Assembly: GCA_017881315.1 (NCBI GenBank)
Contig: JADGRB010000001.1
Coordinates: 12,564-76,563, forward strand
Direction: 5' to 3'
Length of the DNA: 64,000 nt
DNA from: Pseudomonadota bacterium
GTDB lineage: Bacteria > Myxococcota_A > Polyangia > Fen-1088
Numbering within the stretch: position 1 is the first letter of the stretch; each line of letters begins with the position of its first letter. Below are positions 788-62,374 of this stretch, piece after piece. The notes under the pieces were generated by a model, which saw only the letters and a program-made list of their open reading frames with translations, made no database searches and was not told the origin of the DNA. The position numbers and the translations under genes are program-made.

Positions 788-886
788 GGGCGCCCGCGCG
801 TGTTATAAAAACGCTCCTGTTTTCTACTCCGTTTCGCGGACTTAGCAACGGAGACGCCGGCACCGATCCGAGTCTGGAGGAGCGTA

Positions 887-11371
<10,485 letters not shown>

Positions 11372-55461: not shown

Positions 55462-55549
55462 AGGTGGGCAATCTAGCCTCGAACCCATCGGAATCGAGGC
55501 AATTCTTTGACCGGCTTGACGCGTCCCCGGGGGTTTGGCAGGAAGGCGC

Positions 55550-56761
55550 ATGCCCAAGCAGCTGGTCGCCCCCCGCATCCGTAGCTTCATCTGTCTGAAC
55601 GCTCACCCGGGGGGGTGCGCCGCCAACGTCGACGCGGAGATCGCGGTCGCGACGACCGGCGCTCCGGGCACCGGCCTGCGCGATGCCCTGGTGGTGGGCG
55701 CCAGCACCGGCTACGGGCTGTCCAGCCTGGTGAGCGCGATCTTCGGCTACGGCGCGCGCGGCACGGCGGTCTGCCTGGAACGGCCACCGCAGGGGGAAAA
55801 GACCGCTTCGGCGGGCTGGTACAACCTGGCCGCCGTCGAGCGCCGCGCGCGGGAGCACGGACGCGAGCTCTCGGTCGTCAATGGGGATGCCTTCAGCGAC
55901 GAGATCAAGCGCGACACCCTGGCCCGGCTCGCGCGTGCCGGCACCAAGCTGGATTGCGTCGTCTACAGCCTCGCCAGCCCCAAGCGGACCGACCCCCAAA
56001 CTGGCGTCAGCTACAGCTCGGCGCTCAAGCCGATCGGTGCGCCGTTTCGCAGCCGGAGCATCAACCTCGGCAACGATCAGGTGACCCCGGTCGAGATCGG
56101 CCCGGCCAGCGACGCCGAGATCGAGGCGACGCGCAAGGTGATGGGAGGCGAGGACTTCGCGGCCTGGATCCGCGCGCTCGAGGAGGCCGAGCTGCTGGCC
56201 GAAGGTTGTCGCGTCGTCGCGTACAGCTACATCGGACCAGCGCTGACCTTCCCGATCTACCGCTCGGGGACCATCGGCAAGGCCAAGGAGGATCTCGAAG
56301 CCACGGCCCGGACGCTGTCGACGGCGCTGGCCTCGCGCCTCCGAGGCGCGGCCTACGTGAGCGTGAACAAGGCGCTCGTCACCCAGGCGTCGGCGGCGAT
56401 CCCGGTGGTTCCGCTCTATATCAGCCTGCTCTACAAGGTGATGAAGGAGGCCGGAACACACGAGGGGACTGCCCAGCAGATCGCGCGTCTCTTTCGCGAT
56501 CACCTCGCACCCGGGCGCAGCCCGGCCACCGACGAAGCGGGCCGCATCCGCATCGACGACCTCGAGATGGAGGCCGGCGTCCAGGCGCGCGTGGCCGCGC
56601 TCTGGGAGACGGTCACGACCGAGAACCTGTTCGAGGTGACCGACTACGCGGGCTTCAAGACCGATTTTCGCCGTCTCTTCGGCTTCGAGATCCCCGGCGT
56701 CGACTACGCCACCCCGGTCGAGACCGACCTGCCCATCGCATCGGTTGCCGCGGCGCTATAA
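55550..56761 (+). CDS. fabV: Trans-2-enoyl-CoA/ACP reductase FabV
   Basis: The N-terminus PRIRSFICLNAHPGGCAANV matches the FabV RGFICVTAHPAGCEANV signature. Length is ~400 aa, with a Tyr-x8-Lys active site region (YSYIGPALTFPIYRSGTIGKAK). Confidence 0.85.
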   Translation: MPKQLVAPRIRSFICLNAHPGGCAANVDAEIAVATTGAPGTGLRDALVVGASTGYGLSSLVSAIFGYGARGTAVCLERPPQGEKTASAGWYNLAAVERRAREHGRELSVVNGDAFSDEIKRDTLARLARAGTKLDCVVYSLASPKRTDPQTGVSYSSALKPIGAPFRSRSINLGNDQVTPVEIGPASDAEIEATRKVMGGEDFAAWIRALEEAELLAEGCRVVAYSYIGPALTFPIYRSGTIGKAKEDLEATARTLSTALASRLRGAAYVSVNKALVTQASAAIPVVPLYISLLYKVMKEAGTHEGTAQQIARLFRDHLAPGRSPATDEAGRIRIDDLEMEAGVQARVAALWETVTTENLFEVTDYAGFKTDFRRLFGFEIPGVDYATPVETDLPIASVAAAL

Positions 56762-56771
56762 TCCCTCGGTC

Positions 56772-56978
56772 ATGCAGCGTTCGGTTTCGCTCAAGGTGAT
56801 CGTTCACTGCCCCCACTTCGGGCGTCCGGTGACCGCCACGCGCAACCTGGCCATCGACAGGCTGGTGGCCTGCACGGACAGCGAGCTCTGCCGAGATCCC
56901 AACCCCGTCGCCGCCCCGACCGAGCACGCGCGCCCATTTCCGCGCGGCTGCCCGGTGTTCCCCTCGCTCGCCAAGTAG
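56772..56978 (+). CDS. Small Cys-containing protein (68 aa), hypothetical
   Basis: High GC3 (about 80%). Four Cys (HCPHF, VAC, ELC, GCP) suggest a possible small metal-binding protein. No recognisable family. Confidence 0.35.
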   Translation: MQRSVSLKVIVHCPHFGRPVTATRNLAIDRLVACTDSELCRDPNPVAAPTEHARPFPRGCPVFPSLAK

Positions 56979-57018
56979 CGGCAGCGCGACGGCCGCTCGC
57001 CTGTCGGCGATCGCCTTG

Positions 57019-57340
57019 CTACTTGGGCATCGGCTCGTCGTCGGTCGACGGCGCGGAGGACTTCTTCTTGCCGGCCTTCTTGGGCTTTTCGGCGGCCTTG
57101 TCGGCTTTGTCGGCCTTGTCGGCCGCCTTGCTGGCTTTGTCGGCCGATTTGCTGGCTTTGTCGGCTGATTGGTCGGCCTTGCTGGCCGCCTTGTCGGCCT
57201 TCTCTGCTGACTTGTCGGCCTTGTCGGCGGCTTTGTCGGCGGCCTTGTCGGCCTTGTCGGCTTTGTCGGCCTTGGCTTTTCCGGCCTTGTCGCCCTTGGC
57301 CTTCCCGCCCTTGCCCTTGCCCTTGCCCGCGCGATCGGGC
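57019..57340. repeat. Degenerate 12-18 bp tandem DNA repeats encoding the AKADKADK tail
   Basis: Plus-strand units GCCTTGTCGGCC / GCTTTGTCGGCC / GCCTTGCTGGCC are repeated about 20 times. Confidence 0.5.
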
Positions 57341-58782
57341 GACGGGTTGATGTCCTCGGGCTCGGGTTGGGTCTGGATCTTTTCGCTGCCGGAGAGCAAC
57401 CGGAACTCGATGCGCCGGTTCTTTTCGGTGCCCTCTTTGGTGGCGTTGTCGGCGATCGGTTTATCGGGGCCGTAGCCGATGGTGCCGATGCGGCTCTCGT
57501 CGATGCCGGCCGAGACCAGGAACGCCTTCACCGCTTCCGCCCGCTTGCGCGAAAGCTTCATGTTGAACTCGCGCTTACCCTCTGTGGATGTATGGCCGGA
57601 GATCTCCACCCGCAGGGCCGGGTAGTCCTTGAAGACGATGATCGCCTGCTTGAGCAGCGGGAAGGACGAGGCCTTGATGTCGGCCGAGTTGCGCCGGAAG
57701 TTGATCCCCTTGACGACGCCGGTGAAGGCCTTGACCGCCACCGGGACCTCGTCGGGGCAGCCGTCCTCGTCCTGGTACCCGTTCTTGGTCTCGGGCTCGT
57801 TCGGGCACTTGTCCTTCTCGTCGAGAATGCCGTCCTTGTCGTTGTCGGGATCCGGGCAGCCGTCGGCGTCCTCGAAGCCGTCCTTGTCCTCGGGGTCGTC
57901 GGGGCACTTGTCCGCCGAGTCGACGATGCCGTCGTGGTCGCGATCCTCCTCGGGGCAGCCGTCGCGCTCCTTCGGGCCGGCCTTGTCGGGGCACTTGTCC
58001 AGGCGGTCGACGATGCCGTCGCCGTCGGTGTCCTTGTCGGGGCAGCCCTTGTTCTCCTTCGGACCGGCCTCGTTCGGACAGTTGTCCTTGTCGTCGGTGA
58101 TGCCGTCGCCGTCGGTGTCCTTGACGAGCTGCGCGACCGGCTCGGGCGGCGGGGGCGCGTGGCCGCCCAGCGTGACGCCGAAGCCGAGCGTGACCTCCCA
58201 GTCGGGAGAGAAACCGTTGTTCTTGACGTTGGGGGCCGCCAGGGCCCGGCCGTCGAGCCGCAGGTGCAAAAGCTCGGTGAGGGCGAACTTGGCGCCGAGG
58301 CCGACGTAGAAGTTCGCGTCGGTATCGTTCTTCTTGATGGCCGTATAGCTTCCGTCGCCGGAGGACGCGAGAACCGAGGTCGCGCCGACGCCGGCCAGCA
58401 CGAACGGCGTCACCGGGCCGGGGAGGATGATGTTGTAGCGAAGGTGGATGCGCAACGCGCTGATGAAGAGGCTCTTGCCCTGCTGGTTGTCCTTGGTGGG
58501 CATGCCCAGCGCTTCGCCTTCGATCGCGAACATTGGGTGGAGCACCAAGGCGGTGCGGATCCCAAAGGTCACCGAGCTCTTGGGGCTGGGCAGCGTGGGG
58601 TCATCGGCGACGCCCAGCTCGAGATCCTTGGCGAACCAATGGTAGCCACCGGTCACGCCGAGCTCGACTTTGATCCCCTCGCTGTTGTCTTGCGCCGCGG
58701 CGTTGCGAGCCCCGAACAAGATGCAAACGCCCAAGGCGGCCGCCAGGGCGCCGCGCGATCTCCACTCGAGGATCTGTGCCAT
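57019..58782 (-). CDS. OmpA-family outer-membrane protein with thrombospondin type-3 (Ca-binding) repeats and a Lys/Ala-rich C-terminal tail
   Basis: Signal peptide, a beta-rich N-domain, six or more DxDxDGxxDxxDxCP repeats (DTDGDGITDDKDNCP, DTDGDGIVDRLDKCP, DRDHDGIVDSADKCP ...), and an OmpA_C domain (NMKLSRKRAEAVKAFL...NRRIEF). The tail is GKAKGDKAGKAKADKADKAADKAADKADK...KKAGKKK. Confidence 0.85.
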   Translation of the reverse strand: MAQILEWRSRGALAAALGVCILFGARNAAAQDNSEGIKVELGVTGGYHWFAKDLELGVADDPTLPSPKSSVTFGIRTALVLHPMFAIEGEALGMPTKDNQQGKSLFISALRIHLRYNIILPGPVTPFVLAGVGATSVLASSGDGSYTAIKKNDTDANFYVGLGAKFALTELLHLRLDGRALAAPNVKNNGFSPDWEVTLGFGVTLGGHAPPPPEPVAQLVKDTDGDGITDDKDNCPNEAGPKENKGCPDKDTDGDGIVDRLDKCPDKAGPKERDGCPEEDRDHDGIVDSADKCPDDPEDKDGFEDADGCPDPDNDKDGILDEKDKCPNEPETKNGYQDEDGCPDEVPVAVKAFTGVVKGINFRRNSADIKASSFPLLKQAIIVFKDYPALRVEISGHTSTEGKREFNMKLSRKRAEAVKAFLVSAGIDESRIGTIGYGPDKPIADNATKEGTEKNRRIEFRLLSGSEKIQTQPEPEDINPSPDRAGKGKGKGGKAKGDKAGKAKADKADKADKAADKAADKADKSAEKADKAASKADQSADKASKSADKASKAADKADKADKAAEKPKKAGKKKSSAPSTDDEPMPK

Positions 58783-58926: not shown

Positions 58927-59232
58927 ATGATCCGTTTTGCCGCCCCGCTCTCCGCCGCTGCGCTGCTTTTCCTGCTCACCGGGACCGCCGGCGCCGCCGA
59001 CGAGGGGAAGTGTACCATCGCAATCAAGGGCGACTCCCCGACGGCCCGGGCCTGCACAAAAGGCGGCCGGGCCGAAGCGAAGAAGATGATGAAGGAGATG
59101 GTCAAGCAGGCCAAGGGCAGCGGGCAGAAGTTCACCTGCGACGGTTGCCACAAGGATCTCGACAACTACGAGCTGACCAAGACGGCGCCCGAAGATTTCA
59201 AGAAGCTGGAAGCCGCCCAAAAAACCAAGTGA
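58927..59232 (+). CDS. Small secreted protein with a single CXXCH motif (candidate mini c-type cytochrome or disulfide protein)
   Basis: Signal peptide MIRFAAPLSAAALLFLLTGTAGAA. Mature ~77 aa with 4 Cys including FTCDGCHKD. RBS GAGGAGG precedes the ATG. Confidence 0.55.
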   Translation: MIRFAAPLSAAALLFLLTGTAGAADEGKCTIAIKGDSPTARACTKGGRAEAKKMMKEMVKQAKGSGQKFTCDGCHKDLDNYELTKTAPEDFKKLEAAQKTK

Positions 59233-59269
59233 GGCCGGAGCGGCGTAACGCCCGCGCCGCGGATAAACG

Positions 59270-60811
59270 ATGAAAACTGTCACCGAGTTTCCAGGAATTG
59301 TGCTCCGAGAGGCGGCGGGAATTCGGCGCCTGCATCGCCCCGCGCCGGTGGCGCCACCCGCGGCGCCCGTCCCGCCCGAGTCCGAAGCGGGATCGTCGAC
59401 CGCGGTCGAGCCGACGAGCGAGGCACCATCGGCTGAGCTCGACCAGGTTTCCGCGGTCGAGGCACCCGCGGTCGAGCCGACGAGCGAGGCACCCGCGGAC
59501 GAGGCACCCGCGGACGAGGCACCGGCCGTCGAGGCGGCACCGGCCGTCGAGGCGGAGCCGGCCGTCGAGGCGGCGGCGAGCGCCGAGTCTGTCGGCACCG
59601 ACGTGCCCGCGCCCGAGGGACCACCTCCCGAAGGTCCGACGCCCGACGGACCCGCGCCCGAGGAGCCTGCGCCCGAGGCACCACAGCCGGAGGTGGCGGA
59701 AGCCGCCGCGCCGGTGGTCGATGAAGGCGCCATTGCCGCCGCGGCCGAGCTGGAAGAGAAGCTCGATATCAAAGGCGATCGCCTGGCGCGACTCATGGAG
59801 GCGCTCGACGTCATCCGCGATCGCGCCGACAACGTGCGGCTCGTGCGCGTGATGAGCGGCGAGGATCCGCCACCCGGTGCCAAGAAGCAGGGCGACTTCT
59901 ACTACCTCGTCGATCTTCTGCCGCGCCCGGAGCAGCGGCGCGATCGGGGCGATCGCGCTGGCGGGCAAGGTCGTCGCGAGCGGGGTGGCGGCGGTCCCGG
60001 CGGCGGCCGTGGCGGCGGCGGTGGTCGTCCAGGCGGCGGCCCCGGCGGAGCCGGCGGCGGTCGTCCCGGCGGCGGCCCGGGCGGAGCCGGCGGTCGTGCC
60101 GGCGGCGGCTTCGGTTTCGGCGGTCGTGATCGCGATTCGGGTCCAGGCACACCCGCCGCCGGTCCCGGTTGGATGATCACCCGGGATGCCGGCGGTCCTC
60201 CATTGCCGGACGGTCGTCCCGGTCGCCGTCCGGTCGCCAAGCGCGCAGACGCCGAAGCGGGCGATCGGCGCCCCGGTCGGGGAGCTGGCGGTGGTGCAGG
60301 TGGTCGTCCCGGCGGCGGTCCGGGTGGTCGTCCCGGCGGCGGTCCGGGGGGCGGCGCTGGAGGTCGGCCGGCGGGTGGTCCCGGTGGCGGTGTGGGCGCC
60401 CGGCCCGGTGGCGGACCCGGCGGTCGCCCGGGCGGCGGGCCAGGCGGTGGCTCGGGTCGCGGACCTGGCGGTGGCCCAGGCGGTCGTCCCAGCGGCGGGC
60501 CCGGTGGTGATTCTCGCGGGCGCGGTCCGCGCGGACCCGGCGGTGGACCGGGCGCATCGCGCGGTCCGGCCTTCGCGCGCGGTGGGCCGGGTGGAAGGCC
60601 GCCGGGGTCGGGGCCGAAGCGCGATTCGATGGGCTGGCCGATCGCCGACACCGTCGCGCCGGGGTCGGTCGCTCCCTTGCCGAGATCGACGTCGGCCTCC
60701 AGGGCGGAGCCGAAATCCGGGCCGAAATCCGAGTCAAAATCCGAGTCGAAGCTCGAGCCGGTCTCGGCTCCGCCAGAGCCGTCCACCCCCGACGCCTCCA
60801 AGTCGTCGTAG
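59270..60811 (+). CDS. Intrinsically disordered protein: acidic Pro/Glu/Ala-rich N-region, short folded segment, long GGRPGGGPGG (RGG-like) repeat region, Ser/Lys/Glu tail
   Basis: The ORF abuts the upstream gene (38 nt) and ends 3 nt before the downstream gene. The central segment EEKLDIKGDRLARLMEALDVIRDRADNVRLVRVMSGE looks folded. An antisense Pro-rich ORF (59902..61161) exists but overruns the downstream gene. Confidence 0.55.
   Translation: MKTVTEFPGIVLREAAGIRRLHRPAPVAPPAAPVPPESEAGSSTAVEPTSEAPSAELDQVSAVEAPAVEPTSEAPADEAPADEAPAVEAAPAVEAEPAVEAAASAESVGTDVPAPEGPPPEGPTPDGPAPEEPAPEAPQPEVAEAAAPVVDEGAIAAAAELEEKLDIKGDRLARLMEALDVIRDRADNVRLVRVMSGEDPPPGAKKQGDFYYLVDLLPRPEQRRDRGDRAGGQGRRERGGGGPGGGRGGGGGRPGGGPGGAGGGRPGGGPGGAGGRAGGGFGFGGRDRDSGPGTPAAGPGWMITRDAGGPPLPDGRPGRRPVAKRADAEAGDRRPGRGAGGGAGGRPGGGPGGRPGGGPGGGAGGRPAGGPGGGVGARPGGGPGGRPGGGPGGGSGRGPGGGPGGRPSGGPGGDSRGRGPRGPGGGPGASRGPAFARGGPGGRPPGSGPKRDSMGWPIADTVAPGSVAPLPRSTSASRAEPKSGPKSESKSESKLEPVSAPPEPSTPDASKSS
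59940..60600. repeat. Imperfect ~30-bp tandem repeat (GGTCGTCCCGGCGGCGGCCCGGGCGGAGCC-like)
   Basis: About 15-20 degenerate copies encode GGRPGGGPGGA units. GC is above 80%. Confidence 0.5.
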
Positions 60812-60814
60812 CGT

Positions 60815-62374
60815 TTGCGGCGCGATATGCGCGGAAGACCTCGGATGGCGTGGGCCAAGATCGTCGGCGTCGGCGCCTGGTATGCGCTGGGGATCTCCGC
60901 GGTGGTGGCCGCGGCGGTCGTCGCGCCGCCTTCGCCGCCGCCGCGTCTGGCCGTCGAGGGCGGCCTGTCGTTCGACGTCCGTGACGCGAAGACCGGCCAG
61001 CCGATTCCCTGCAAGCTGACGCTGGTGGGCGTCGACGGCACGCCCGATCCCGAGTTCACGCGCGTCGACATCGCGCGGCAGGAGGGCGACGGCGCGATCG
61101 CCGCCTTCAATCGGATCATGTCGCTGACCGGCGTCGGCGTCGCGCACGTGCCCGCCGGCACCTACGACGTGACGGTGAGCCGGGGACCGGAGTGGGAGAT
61201 CTCGACGGCGCGGCACCTCAAGATCACGGCTCGCGGAGCGACGGTGACGGCGCGGCTCGACCACGTGGTCGATACGCACGGCTGGCTGTCCGCCGATTTT
61301 CACGTCCATGCCGCCCGCTCGCCCGATTCGCGCGTGCCGATGCACGACCGGATCTTCGAGTTCGTCGCCGACGACGTCCAGATGATCGTCGCAACCGATC
61401 ACAACGTGATCTCGGACTACGAACCGTACATCCGGGAGCTCGACGCCGGACGCTACATCACGAGCGCGGTGGGCGACGAGCTGACCACCGCCGCCTGGGG
61501 TCACTTCGGCGCGTTTCCGTTGCCCCGTAACCTGGAGGCGCCCGGGCAGGGCGCGATCCTGGTCCACGGGCGGCGGCCGGATGACTTCTTCAAGGACGTG
61601 CGCCGGAACGCCCCCGACGCGATCATCGACGTGCACCACCCACGGATCGACGCCGAGATCGGCTATTTCGACATCGGTCAGTTCGACGCCCGCTCCGATC
61701 GGGCCGGCCGGGCCGGGTTCTCCTGGGACTTCGACGCGCTCGAGGTGATGAACGGCTATCAGGATCCGGTACGGCGCAGCGTCGACCGCGTGGTCGAGGA
61801 CTGGTTCTCGCTACTCAACCACGATCACCTGGTCACCGCGACGGGAAACTCCGACACCCACCACCTCACCTTCAACATCGGCGGCTACCCGCGGAACTAC
61901 GTCAAGGTGCGCGAGGACAAGCCCGAGCGGATCGATCCCAGGGAGATCGCGACGGCGCTGCGTGGCCACCACGCCTTCTTCACGACGGGGCCATTCGTCG
62001 CGCTGGCGGTCAACGGGGGCGCGATCGGCGACCTGGTGCCGGCGCGCGGCGGAAAGGCGCACGCCGAGATCACCGTCCAGGCGGCCTCGTGGGTCTCGGT
62101 CGATCGGGTGACGCTCTACCTGAACGGCGAGGAGGCGAAGCGCTGGACGGTGCCGCCCGGGACCGCGGCGGTGCGTTTCCACGAGACGTTCGATCTTTCG
62201 ACCCCGCGCGACGGGTACGTGGTGGTCCGGGTCGACGGCGGCAAGTCGCTGTCGCCGGTGGTCGGCGATCGCAAGACCTTCACGGCCTACCCGTTCGCGC
62301 TCACCAACCCGGTCTTCCTCGACGTCGACGGGGACGGGAAGTACCGCACCGGCTCTCCACACGGGCACCCGTAG
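60815..62374 (+). CDS. PHP-domain (CehA/McbA-like) metal-dependent phosphoesterase, probably secreted or membrane-anchored
   Basis: ADFHVHAARSPDS and IVATDHN (PHP His motifs), with later GNSDTHH. The N-terminus has a hydrophobic AWAKIVGVGAWYALGISAVVAAAVVA. Alternative starts are at 60827 and 60845. Confidence 0.7.
   Translation: MRRDMRGRPRMAWAKIVGVGAWYALGISAVVAAAVVAPPSPPPRLAVEGGLSFDVRDAKTGQPIPCKLTLVGVDGTPDPEFTRVDIARQEGDGAIAAFNRIMSLTGVGVAHVPAGTYDVTVSRGPEWEISTARHLKITARGATVTARLDHVVDTHGWLSADFHVHAARSPDSRVPMHDRIFEFVADDVQMIVATDHNVISDYEPYIRELDAGRYITSAVGDELTTAAWGHFGAFPLPRNLEAPGQGAILVHGRRPDDFFKDVRRNAPDAIIDVHHPRIDAEIGYFDIGQFDARSDRAGRAGFSWDFDALEVMNGYQDPVRRSVDRVVEDWFSLLNHDHLVTATGNSDTHHLTFNIGGYPRNYVKVREDKPERIDPREIATALRGHHAFFTTGPFVALAVNGGAIGDLVPARGGKAHAEITVQAASWVSVDRVTLYLNGEEAKRWTVPPGTAAVRFHETFDLSTPRDGYVVVRVDGGKSLSPVVGDRKTFTAYPFALTNPVFLDVDGDGKYRTGSPHGHP

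Follow-up and report, generated by a model that had tools for sequence, protein, structure and literature searches.

A split alpha/beta domain with a long basic Gly/Arg/Pro-rich tail in a previously undescribed protein family of Myxococcota

Introduction

What kind of protein combines a small folded part with long acidic and Gly/Arg/Pro-rich low-complexity stretches, and what could such a protein do in a bacterium? This question is raised by a gene at 59270..60811 of a 64,000-nucleotide stretch of a Polyangia genome (GenBank assembly GCA_017881315.1, contig JADGRB010000001.1, positions 12,564 to 76,563; GTDB lineage Myxococcota_A, Fen-1088). The whole stretch is called the window in the following, and the 513-aa product of the gene the window protein. 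A preliminary description, made from the letters of the window, had regarded it as a mostly disordered 'RGG-like' protein that has an acidic stretch, one short folded segment and long Gly/Arg/Pro repeats, and had suggested that it forms a functional pair with the enzyme encoded directly downstream. The general layout was borne out by our analysis, the pairing was not.

In eukaryotes, long disordered domains rich in Gly and Arg typify RNA biology and condensates, and to our knowledge few bacterial equivalents have been defined. Among the RNA-binding proteins of prokaryotes, low-complexity regions rich in Arg are overrepresented, and no bacteria have more low-complexity regions than myxobacteria (PMC6821194); that study bears only on this general link and on the abundance of such regions in myxobacteria. 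Here we describe a protein family in which a split alpha/beta domain is joined to a basic tail, which was previously undescribed and has so far been found only in Myxococcota.

Results

A domain interrupted by an acidic insertion

Residues 1-24 and 151-218 are predicted to form one alpha/beta domain, which is interrupted by an acidic insertion. In the AlphaFold2 (AF2) model of the full window protein the predicted local distance difference test (pLDDT) score is 94-97 at aa 1-30 and 150-220, and the secondary structure elements (2-8, 9-21, 152-165, 170-182, 189-196, 205-207 and 210-216) are the same as in the compact homolog P0020. For P0020, AF2 returned from a 41-sequence alignment a confident fold over residues 1-93 (pLDDT ~90) with the elements b1 (3-8), a1 (9-25), a2 (29-40), a3 (45-63), b2 (64-71), b3 (80-82) and b4 (85-91), hence the order b1-a1-a2-a3-b2-b3-b4. 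The residues M1, T3, T5 and F7 are invariant in alignment A5.

Since AF2 elements flank aa 25-150 and compact family members, whose a1 and a2 run contiguously, lack this stretch, the acidic 'head' of the preliminary description is predicted to be a lineage-specific insertion of ~125 aa inside a single domain. The acidic stretch as such was correctly recognised (A 29%, P 21%, E 18% and a net charge of -30 over aa 25-160), but the first 24 residues do not belong to a head, as they share the fold of the segment that had been called helix-rich. Within the insertion most of aa 43-111 has a pLDDT of <50 and aa 112-150 range from 58 to 68, and Tandem Repeats Finder (TRF) reported periods of 15, 18 and 30 at 59451-59688. 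Members that carry an insertion have 63-154 aa at this place, poorly conserved in sequence and with a net charge of -7 to -32.

The a2-turn-a3 part of the domain (LG..GDRLARL.EAL) resembles a helix-turn-helix. Its turn, G[VI][ST]GDRLARL, gave sub-threshold matches to DUF3606, and the weak top matches were consistently three-helix helix-turn-helix DNA binders. The best DUF3606 match (Pfam, gathering threshold 24.3 bits) reached 17.8 bits (E 0.003) over 18 residues of homolog P0036, and the domain of the window protein itself was unmatched; we regard the likeness as a lead rather than a classification.

A disordered basic tail with two tryptophan motifs

The domain is followed by a tail of ~290 aa, which is predicted to be disordered (pLDDT ~40) and consists of two Gly/Arg/Pro blocks and two Trp motifs. 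The GPGWMITRD motif splits the two repeat blocks, and the KRDSMGWPIAD motif comes after both. Over aa 223-452 the composition is G 47%, P 16% and R 15% (G+R = 62%) with Phe at 1%. The pattern of the first Trp motif, P-x-[AG]-G-x-G-W-x-[LVI]-[TS]-R-[AD]-P, recurs in distant members with ~40% domain identity, and some orthologs terminate directly after the second motif. In the window protein a Ser/Lys/Glu-rich end had been noticed before; aa 471-513 indeed contain S 30%, P 19%, E 12% and K 12%, and this part is variable between orthologs and missing in L019, L022, L023 and L027.

Instead of the 30-bp tandem repeat that had been assumed, the blocks are built from imperfect units of 8, 11 and 12 residues (24, 33 and 36 bp). 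In block 1 TRF found a period of 33 (59980-60109, 3.9 copies, 80% matches), in block 2 a period of 24 (60287-60448, 6.8 copies, 71% matches; again at 60402-60483), together with sub-periods of 12 and 15. Of the supposed array of ~250 aa of GGRPGGGPGG, the Gly/Arg/Pro region remains, with ~230 aa in two blocks around a non-repeat island, whereas the exact decapeptide occurs only four times; RPGGGPGG is present six times. GPGGx is the commonest exact element; the window protein has 13 copies of it, and counts in 17 orthologs gave 2-22. Repeat units vary among orthologs (for example GGFGGGPGGGGPRGP in L006-L009), while composition and charge persist. The 95%-identical relative L033 has one additional unit of 10 aa in block 1, 11 additional aa in block 2 and indels in the acidic region; copy number, a point raised earlier, thus varies by whole units among close relatives. 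The copy number given for the window is that of the assembled sequence.

The term 'RGG-like' holds for composition and fails for canonical motifs. Tri-RGG, Di-RGG, Tri-RG and Di-RG were reportedly defined by Thandapani and colleagues in 2013 as RGG(X0-4)RGG(X0-4)RGG, RGG(X0-4)RGG, RG(X0-4)RG(X0-4)RG and RG(X0-4)RG. A regular expression search of the 513-aa product found neither Tri-RGG nor Di-RGG and the minimal content of one Tri-RG (RGRGPRG at aa 416) and three Di-RG; orthologs have 0-2 Tri-RGG and 0-3 Di-RGG. Arg in the window protein mostly precedes Pro (nine GRP). In the compositional sense the tail is a glycine/arginine-rich (GAR) domain by its Gly and Arg content and its low pLDDT, for which the proportion of Pro is atypical.

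The charge of the tail is retained throughout. All 37 full-length members have a tail net charge of +12 to +42 (window protein +25), and the more divergent relative P0203 retains a K/R/G/P-rich tail. The net charge of the whole protein is on average ~+25 in members without and ~-2 in members with the insertion, and -4 in the window protein. The features that the tails have kept are disorder, flexibility through Gly and Pro, and positive charge.

Distribution of the family

A search with the non-repetitive segment revealed relatives that share MKT[VIL]TEFSG..LR.AA, GDRLARL.EAL...VRLVRV...AKK.G.FYY.VD and Gly/Arg tails. The family signature comprises the MKT[VIL]TEF strand, the GDRLARL.EAL helix, the VRLVRV and G.F.Y.VD strands and a basic disordered tail with G-x-G-W-x-[LVI]-T-R; the window protein has every one of them. 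When one genome of each species was scanned, 32 loci were found, all from metagenome-assembled genomes (MAGs) of Polyangia, Myxococcales or Myxococcota. Searched with a profile, 1.84 billion representatives gave 406 matching clusters at 50% identity (E<=1e-3), of which 276 reached E<=1e-10 and 41 reached E<=1e-30; E-values went down to 2e-45, and lengths were ~100-700 aa. The named sources of relatives are MAGs of Myxococcales, Polyangia or Kofleriaceae and one labelled Pseudomonadota.

Homolog searches and a cluster look-up gave only MAG entries called 'hypothetical protein' and no named or cultured member. Scans of the protein and of compact homologs against Pfam, NCBIfam, PADLOC and PHROGs gave no match above threshold, a profile-sequence search of the PDB gave no match, and no description of the family was found in the literature on bacterial or myxobacterial RGG proteins.

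Outside the clade of the window protein, the compact, highly basic members P0047, P0051, P0055, P0082, P0086, P0093, P0107 and P0174 contain poly-Arg runs (RRRRRRGRGG), several copies of [DE]x[DN]GN[VIL] and, at the C-terminus, a conserved tip (DDDIGNR, DDSFGNR or PEPGNER). The window protein has none of these three features.

Reading frame, strand and codon usage

As judged from the conservation of its frame, 59270..60811 is a genuine plus-strand gene, in line with the earlier assignment. At ~20 loci from Polyangia MAGs the plus frame spans the N-terminus, domain, repeats and C-terminal motif, with products of 421-588 aa despite many indels; neither a frame without conservation in orthologs nor a pure assembly artefact was found. 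The extreme composition that had drawn attention to this ORF lies well outside chance and is kept by the orthologs.

The Pro-rich antisense reading frame that had also been pointed out does exist (Table 1). It was rejected as a gene, as it runs into the coding start of the downstream CehA/McbA gene, where the frame of the latter has a GC content at third codon positions (GC3) of 0.90-0.96, and as it is open in 6 of 17 orthologs and interrupted by stops in the other 11. The two frames share third codon positions, so that Gly GGN reads as Pro CCN; for the same reason substitution periodicity was unusable for choosing the strand and was dropped.

The GC content is 69% in the window and 76% in the gene, and GC3 is 0.72 in the gene compared to 0.84-0.91 in neighbouring genes. 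In the tail GC3 is 0.60-0.73 for the window gene and the orthologs L005-L032, whose genomes have 65-72% GC. Across all orthologs Gly is encoded by GGC (45-61%) and GGT (21-36%), and GGG is avoided (5-14%), which could reflect avoidance of G-runs or slippage, or tRNA demand. Codon bias was dropped as a proxy for expression: the OmpA-like neighbour uses GGC and CGC, so that the enrichment of GGT and CGT in the gene is not a clear signal of high expression.

Frames are broken in L001, L002, L018, L029 and L031. Since neighbouring genes are also frameshifted, at least in L001 and L002, these breaks are attributed to sequencing errors. Short-read contigs stop inside the Gly repeat in L003, L004, L010, L014, L021, L025 and L028, and predicted proteins begin at an internal Met (MIRDRADNV…) or slip into another frame (P0002, P0004-P0006). 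Such routine truncation and frameshifting in metagenome assemblies, together with mis-calling, may explain why the family lacks a Pfam or NCBIfam model and has escaped annotation.

Table 1. Coordinates of the gene, of the parts of its product and of neighbouring or overlapping reading frames in the window
Feature	Position	Strand	Remarks
Whole gene	59270..60811	+	ATG to TAG, 513 aa plus stop; ORF list, in-frame orthologs, family profile search
Strand b1 and helix a1, aa 1-24, MKTVTEFPGIVLREAAGIRRLHRP (predicted)	59270..59341	+	AF2 pLDDT 94-97; same elements in compact homolog P0020
Acidic Pro/Glu/Ala-rich disordered insertion between a1 and a2, aa 25-150 (predicted)	59342..59719	+	Net charge about -27 to -30
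Helices a2/a3, LDIKGDRLARLMEALDVIRDR, and strands b2-b4 (VRLVRV..., FYYLVDL), rest of the domain, aa 151-218 (predicted)	59720..59923	+	
Gly/Arg/Pro block 1, ~11-aa units RPGGGPGGAGG, aa 223-292	59936..60145	+	G 53%, R 17%; TRF period 33
Tryptophan short linear motif GTPAAGPGWMITRDA, aa 293-307	60146..60190	+	Conserved in 18 aligned orthologs
Gly/Arg/Pro block 2, 8-/12-aa units RPGGGPGG / RPGGGPGGGAGG, aa 346-448	60305..60613	+	G 51%, P 21%, R 13%, net charge +13
Second tryptophan motif PKRDSMGWPIAD, aa 449-460	60614..60649	+	P[KR]RD[AS]KGWPIA[DE] kept across Polyangia orthologs
Variable Ser/Pro/Lys/Glu-rich tail, aa 471-513	60680..60808	+	TRF period 12, 3.7 copies, 60707-60750
Upstream neighbour, 101 aa, signal-peptide-like N-terminus (…LLTGTAGAADEG), CxxCH motif (FTCDGCHKD)	58927..59232	+	37 nt before the gene
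OmpA-family outer-membrane protein: beta-barrel, thrombospondin type-3 repeats, Lys/Ala/Asp-rich C-terminal repeat (ADKAADKADKSAEKADK…)	57019..58782	-	
Downstream CehA/McbA-family metallohydrolase (PHP-like), signal-peptide-like N-terminus	60815..62374	+	NF038032
Antisense Pro-rich ORF, 419 aa	59902..61161	-	Mirror artefact; shares third codon positions with the plus frame

Genomic neighbourhood

The downstream product matches NF038032 with 149.5 bits (cutoff 80; E 1.4e-43; residues 156-503), and its match to Pfam PHP (PF02811) stays with 18.1 bits under the cutoff of 26.4. The 3-nt gap to this gene, which had suggested a functional pair with a PHP-family enzyme, applies if TTG is the start codon and does not apply if the ATG at 60827 or at 60845 is used. 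The CehA/McbA gene lies downstream in 12 of 34 loci, all of them from the closest clade, and is absent from 14 others with enough flanking sequence. Distant members adjoin genes for CorA/acylphosphatase, ribonucleotide reductase, frataxin, hemerythrin/matrixin or DUF790, and a conserved operon partner was not found across the loci and distant members examined. When translations were read by eye, without a predictor, the hydrolase and the CxxCH protein showed a signal-peptide-like N-terminus and the window protein did not; the latter is therefore, as far as its sequence indicates, most likely cytoplasmic, and a functional pair with the hydrolase is unlikely. In function the gene seems to be independent of its neighbours, and its position beside the metallohydrolase is local synteny.

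In nearly all Polyangia loci the 101-aa CxxCH gene lies directly upstream and the OmpA-like gene further upstream in divergent orientation. In the window a strong Shine-Dalgarno sequence, GAGGAGG, precedes the CxxCH gene. The CxxCH protein had no family match in Pfam or NCBIfam and may be a small uncharacterised c-type haem protein. The only match in Rfam, at 59204..59264 (+), was sub-threshold and concerned the DnaX ribosomal frameshifting element (21.5 bits, gathering score 35, E 0.16); it covers the A-run with which the CxxCH gene closes, together with a GC hairpin inside the 37-nt spacer. A frameshift fusion of both genes was rejected: there is a stop at 59264-59266 in the frame of the 59270 gene, the spacer hairpin does not surpass those of shuffled sequence (z -0.70), and the DnaX match looks like chance.

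The OmpA-like protein partially matches the myxobacterial TraB model (185 bits, cutoff 700), and its Lys/Ala/Asp repeat yields a strong dip in AT skew near 56950-57400. Beyond it lies a gene for a FabV-like trans-2-enoyl-CoA reductase (55535..56761, +; PF12241, E 4e-96), which is also found past the OmpA-like gene in locus L001, so that local synteny reaches further upstream at least there. Elsewhere in the window a 3494-aa ORF (887..11371, +) consists almost wholly of tetratricopeptide repeats, with matches to many TPR families of Pfam (E down to 1e-71); the 2409-aa antisense ORF at 842..8071 is probably its mirror artefact.

Discussion

We propose, with a probability of about 0.45, that the window protein works in the cytoplasm as a scaffold or as a binder of nucleic acids, with charge blocks arranged so that they neutralise each other. 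The strongly basic tail would bind polyanions, RNA or DNA being the likeliest, in a non-specific and multivalent manner, much like eukaryotic GAR domains and the basic tails found on bacterial nucleoid proteins. Specific contacts, with a partner or among themselves, would come from the folded domain and the Trp motifs. As a built-in counter-ion, the acidic insertion could neutralise the tail within the same chain. Such a charge-block polyampholyte would be auto-inhibited or self-coacervating until nucleic acid competes. This proposal builds on the architecture of the protein and on what is generally known about GAR domains and about nucleoid proteins with basic tails. A more far-reaching version, which we consider rather unlikely, would see in the family a bacterial group of GAR-like proteins by which RNA or DNA is gathered in condensates, with the domain and the Trp motifs as stickers; in Polyangia the insertion would have made them self-neutralised diblock polyampholytes, with nucleic acid, ionic strength or modification as the switch for assembly.

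Several observations weigh against a role in nucleic-acid binding or against the charge-block layout. Canonical RGG/RG motifs are nearly absent from the window protein, and the family and structure searches gave no homology-based support for nucleic-acid binding. The folded domain is approximately charge-neutral, as seen for the window protein and in a hand count on P0047, which is untypical of a non-specific nucleic-acid binder, and the Trp motifs are not docked onto it in the AF2 model of the window protein. Across the 37 full-length members the charge of the insertion is uncorrelated with that of the tail. At a GC content of 69%, mutational bias partly drives the enrichment of Gly, Arg, Pro and Ala in any low-complexity region, and plus-strand expression of the gene is a prediction from its sequence.

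It is less likely that the protein is rather an interaction hub or a binder of polyanions other than nucleic acids, in which the Trp motifs and the domain would recruit specific partners such as RNA polymerase, the ribosome, RNase or PNPase-like factors, or the tail would bind polyphosphate or acidic proteins. The two short Trp motifs are the best-conserved elements of the tail family-wide, the near-neutral domain fits this idea, and the C-terminal tips of compact members (DDDIGNR, PEPGNER) are typical of partner-docking peptides. However, the neighbourhoods are not conserved, so that a partner cannot be picked out, and a disordered tail with a charge of +12 to +42 would probably bind cellular RNA or DNA regardless. 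A structural or elastomeric function, with GPGGx as an entropic spring or gel in, for example, resting-cell or matrix structures, is improbable. The abundance of GPGGx in the window protein and its orthologs and the Gly content of 47% would suit it, but a signal-peptide-like N-terminus is lacking, the N-terminus being a conserved structured strand, and only composition and charge, not the repeat unit, are kept between orthologs. In addition, a more divergent relative has a K/R/P-rich tail in place of the Gly-rich repeat, and with a longest G-X-Y run of 5 the tail is not collagen-like.

Even less probable is a role as partner, substrate or regulator of the CehA/McbA metallohydrolase, co-transcribed across a gap of 3-33 nt. 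The gap is tight, no terminator-like plus-strand site lies between the genes in the window, and the adjacency is kept in 12 related loci; it is nevertheless missing from the 14 other loci whose flanks are long enough and from every distant member that was examined, the CxxCH protein and the OmpA-like gene are more widely conserved neighbours, and the N-termini as read by eye place the two products probably in different compartments. That the antisense Pro-rich ORF is the real product, or that the repeat region is non-coding or an assembly artefact, is hardly credible. An antisense frame open for 419 codons, the lower GC3 of the plus frame than in neighbouring genes, the contigs that break inside the repeat and the copy number that differs from that of L033 could be cited for it. 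Against this, the plus frame runs unbroken from a domain with 406 homologs via non-repeat motifs to a conserved end and is unbroken in ~17 independent assemblies, including long contigs; the antisense ORF overlaps the CehA coding start and contains stops in 11 of 17 orthologs, and low GC3 with GGT-rich Gly codons is a conserved trait of the family.

What is new is a conserved bacterial family of 406 clusters in which an unannotated fold is joined to a Gly/Arg-rich tail. The natural contrast between compact members (~+25) and approximately neutral insertion-bearing members offers a testable system for charge-patterned disordered regions in bacteria. Should the protein merely be a non-specific basic-tailed protein, the value of the finding would lie mainly in annotation; should the condensate version be true, the family would be an independent bacterial counterpart of the acidic-tract/GAR design of nucleolin, on a new fold.

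Comparison with known systems

In its working the window protein probably comes closest to GAR/RGG-domain proteins and to glycine-rich RNA-binding proteins, although it is a member of none of the families compared here. Like the eukaryotic GAR proteins nucleolin, fibrillarin and FUS with its RGG regions, it carries a long disordered Gly- and Arg-rich tail beside a folded module. The combination of acidic tracts with a basic GAR domain is also found in nucleolin, and the interspersed Phe of GAR domains has a parallel in the GGFGGG of the ortholog units from L006-L009. In contrast to GAR proteins, the window protein has no canonical RGG spacing, contains 16% Pro, has Arg in GRP context and lacks an RRM, KH or methyltransferase domain. 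Its host is a bacterium, and the likeness concerns architecture and implies neither homology nor arginine methylation nor condensates. With the glycine-rich RNA-binding proteins of plants and cyanobacteria it shares the layout of a small N-terminal fold followed by a Gly/Arg-rich disordered C-terminus. What sets it apart is a fold without a match in Pfam, which is not that of an RRM or a cold-shock domain, a tail of several times the length in which conserved Trp motifs are embedded, and the splitting of its domain by the acidic insertion.

Myxococcus xanthus CarD has an HMGA-like C-terminus, in which an acidic region is followed by AT-hooks. The window protein resembles CarD, histone H1-like and other basic-tailed nucleoid proteins in that it is likewise myxobacterial, has both an acidic stretch and a basic low-complexity region in which GRP occurs, and may plausibly associate with DNA. 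The AT-hook core RGRP is however absent from it, and its acidic block lies inside the domain, so that order and topology differ from CarD; neither AT-hook, CarD_TRCF nor any other Pfam family matched the window protein at E<=1.

SSB consists of a fold, a Gly-rich disordered linker and an acidic C-terminal tip (DDDIPF), and the C-terminal part of RNase E is the scaffold of BR-bodies. The family described here shares with SSB a folded module, a long Gly/Pro-rich disordered linker and embedded short motifs, and the D-D-D-I-G-N-R tip of compact members echoes DDDIPF, whereas the window protein itself has no such tip. The charge-block layout is similar to that of RNase E C-terminal domains. Neither an OB fold nor an RNase domain is present, homology to these proteins was not detected, no SSB model of Pfam or NCBIfam matched, and the AF2 topology is b-a-a-a-b-b-b. 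GPGGx is the elastomeric repeat of flagelliform spider silk and at the same time the commonest exact element of the window protein, which differs from silk in being short, apparently cytoplasmic and punctuated by Arg, with a repeat unit that is not conserved among orthologs; nor is it a collagen-like (Gly-X-Y)n protein, as Gly at every third residue does not continue beyond five. Among these systems, the layout of a folded module with a disordered Gly/Arg-rich tail thus provides the closest analogy for how the window protein may work.

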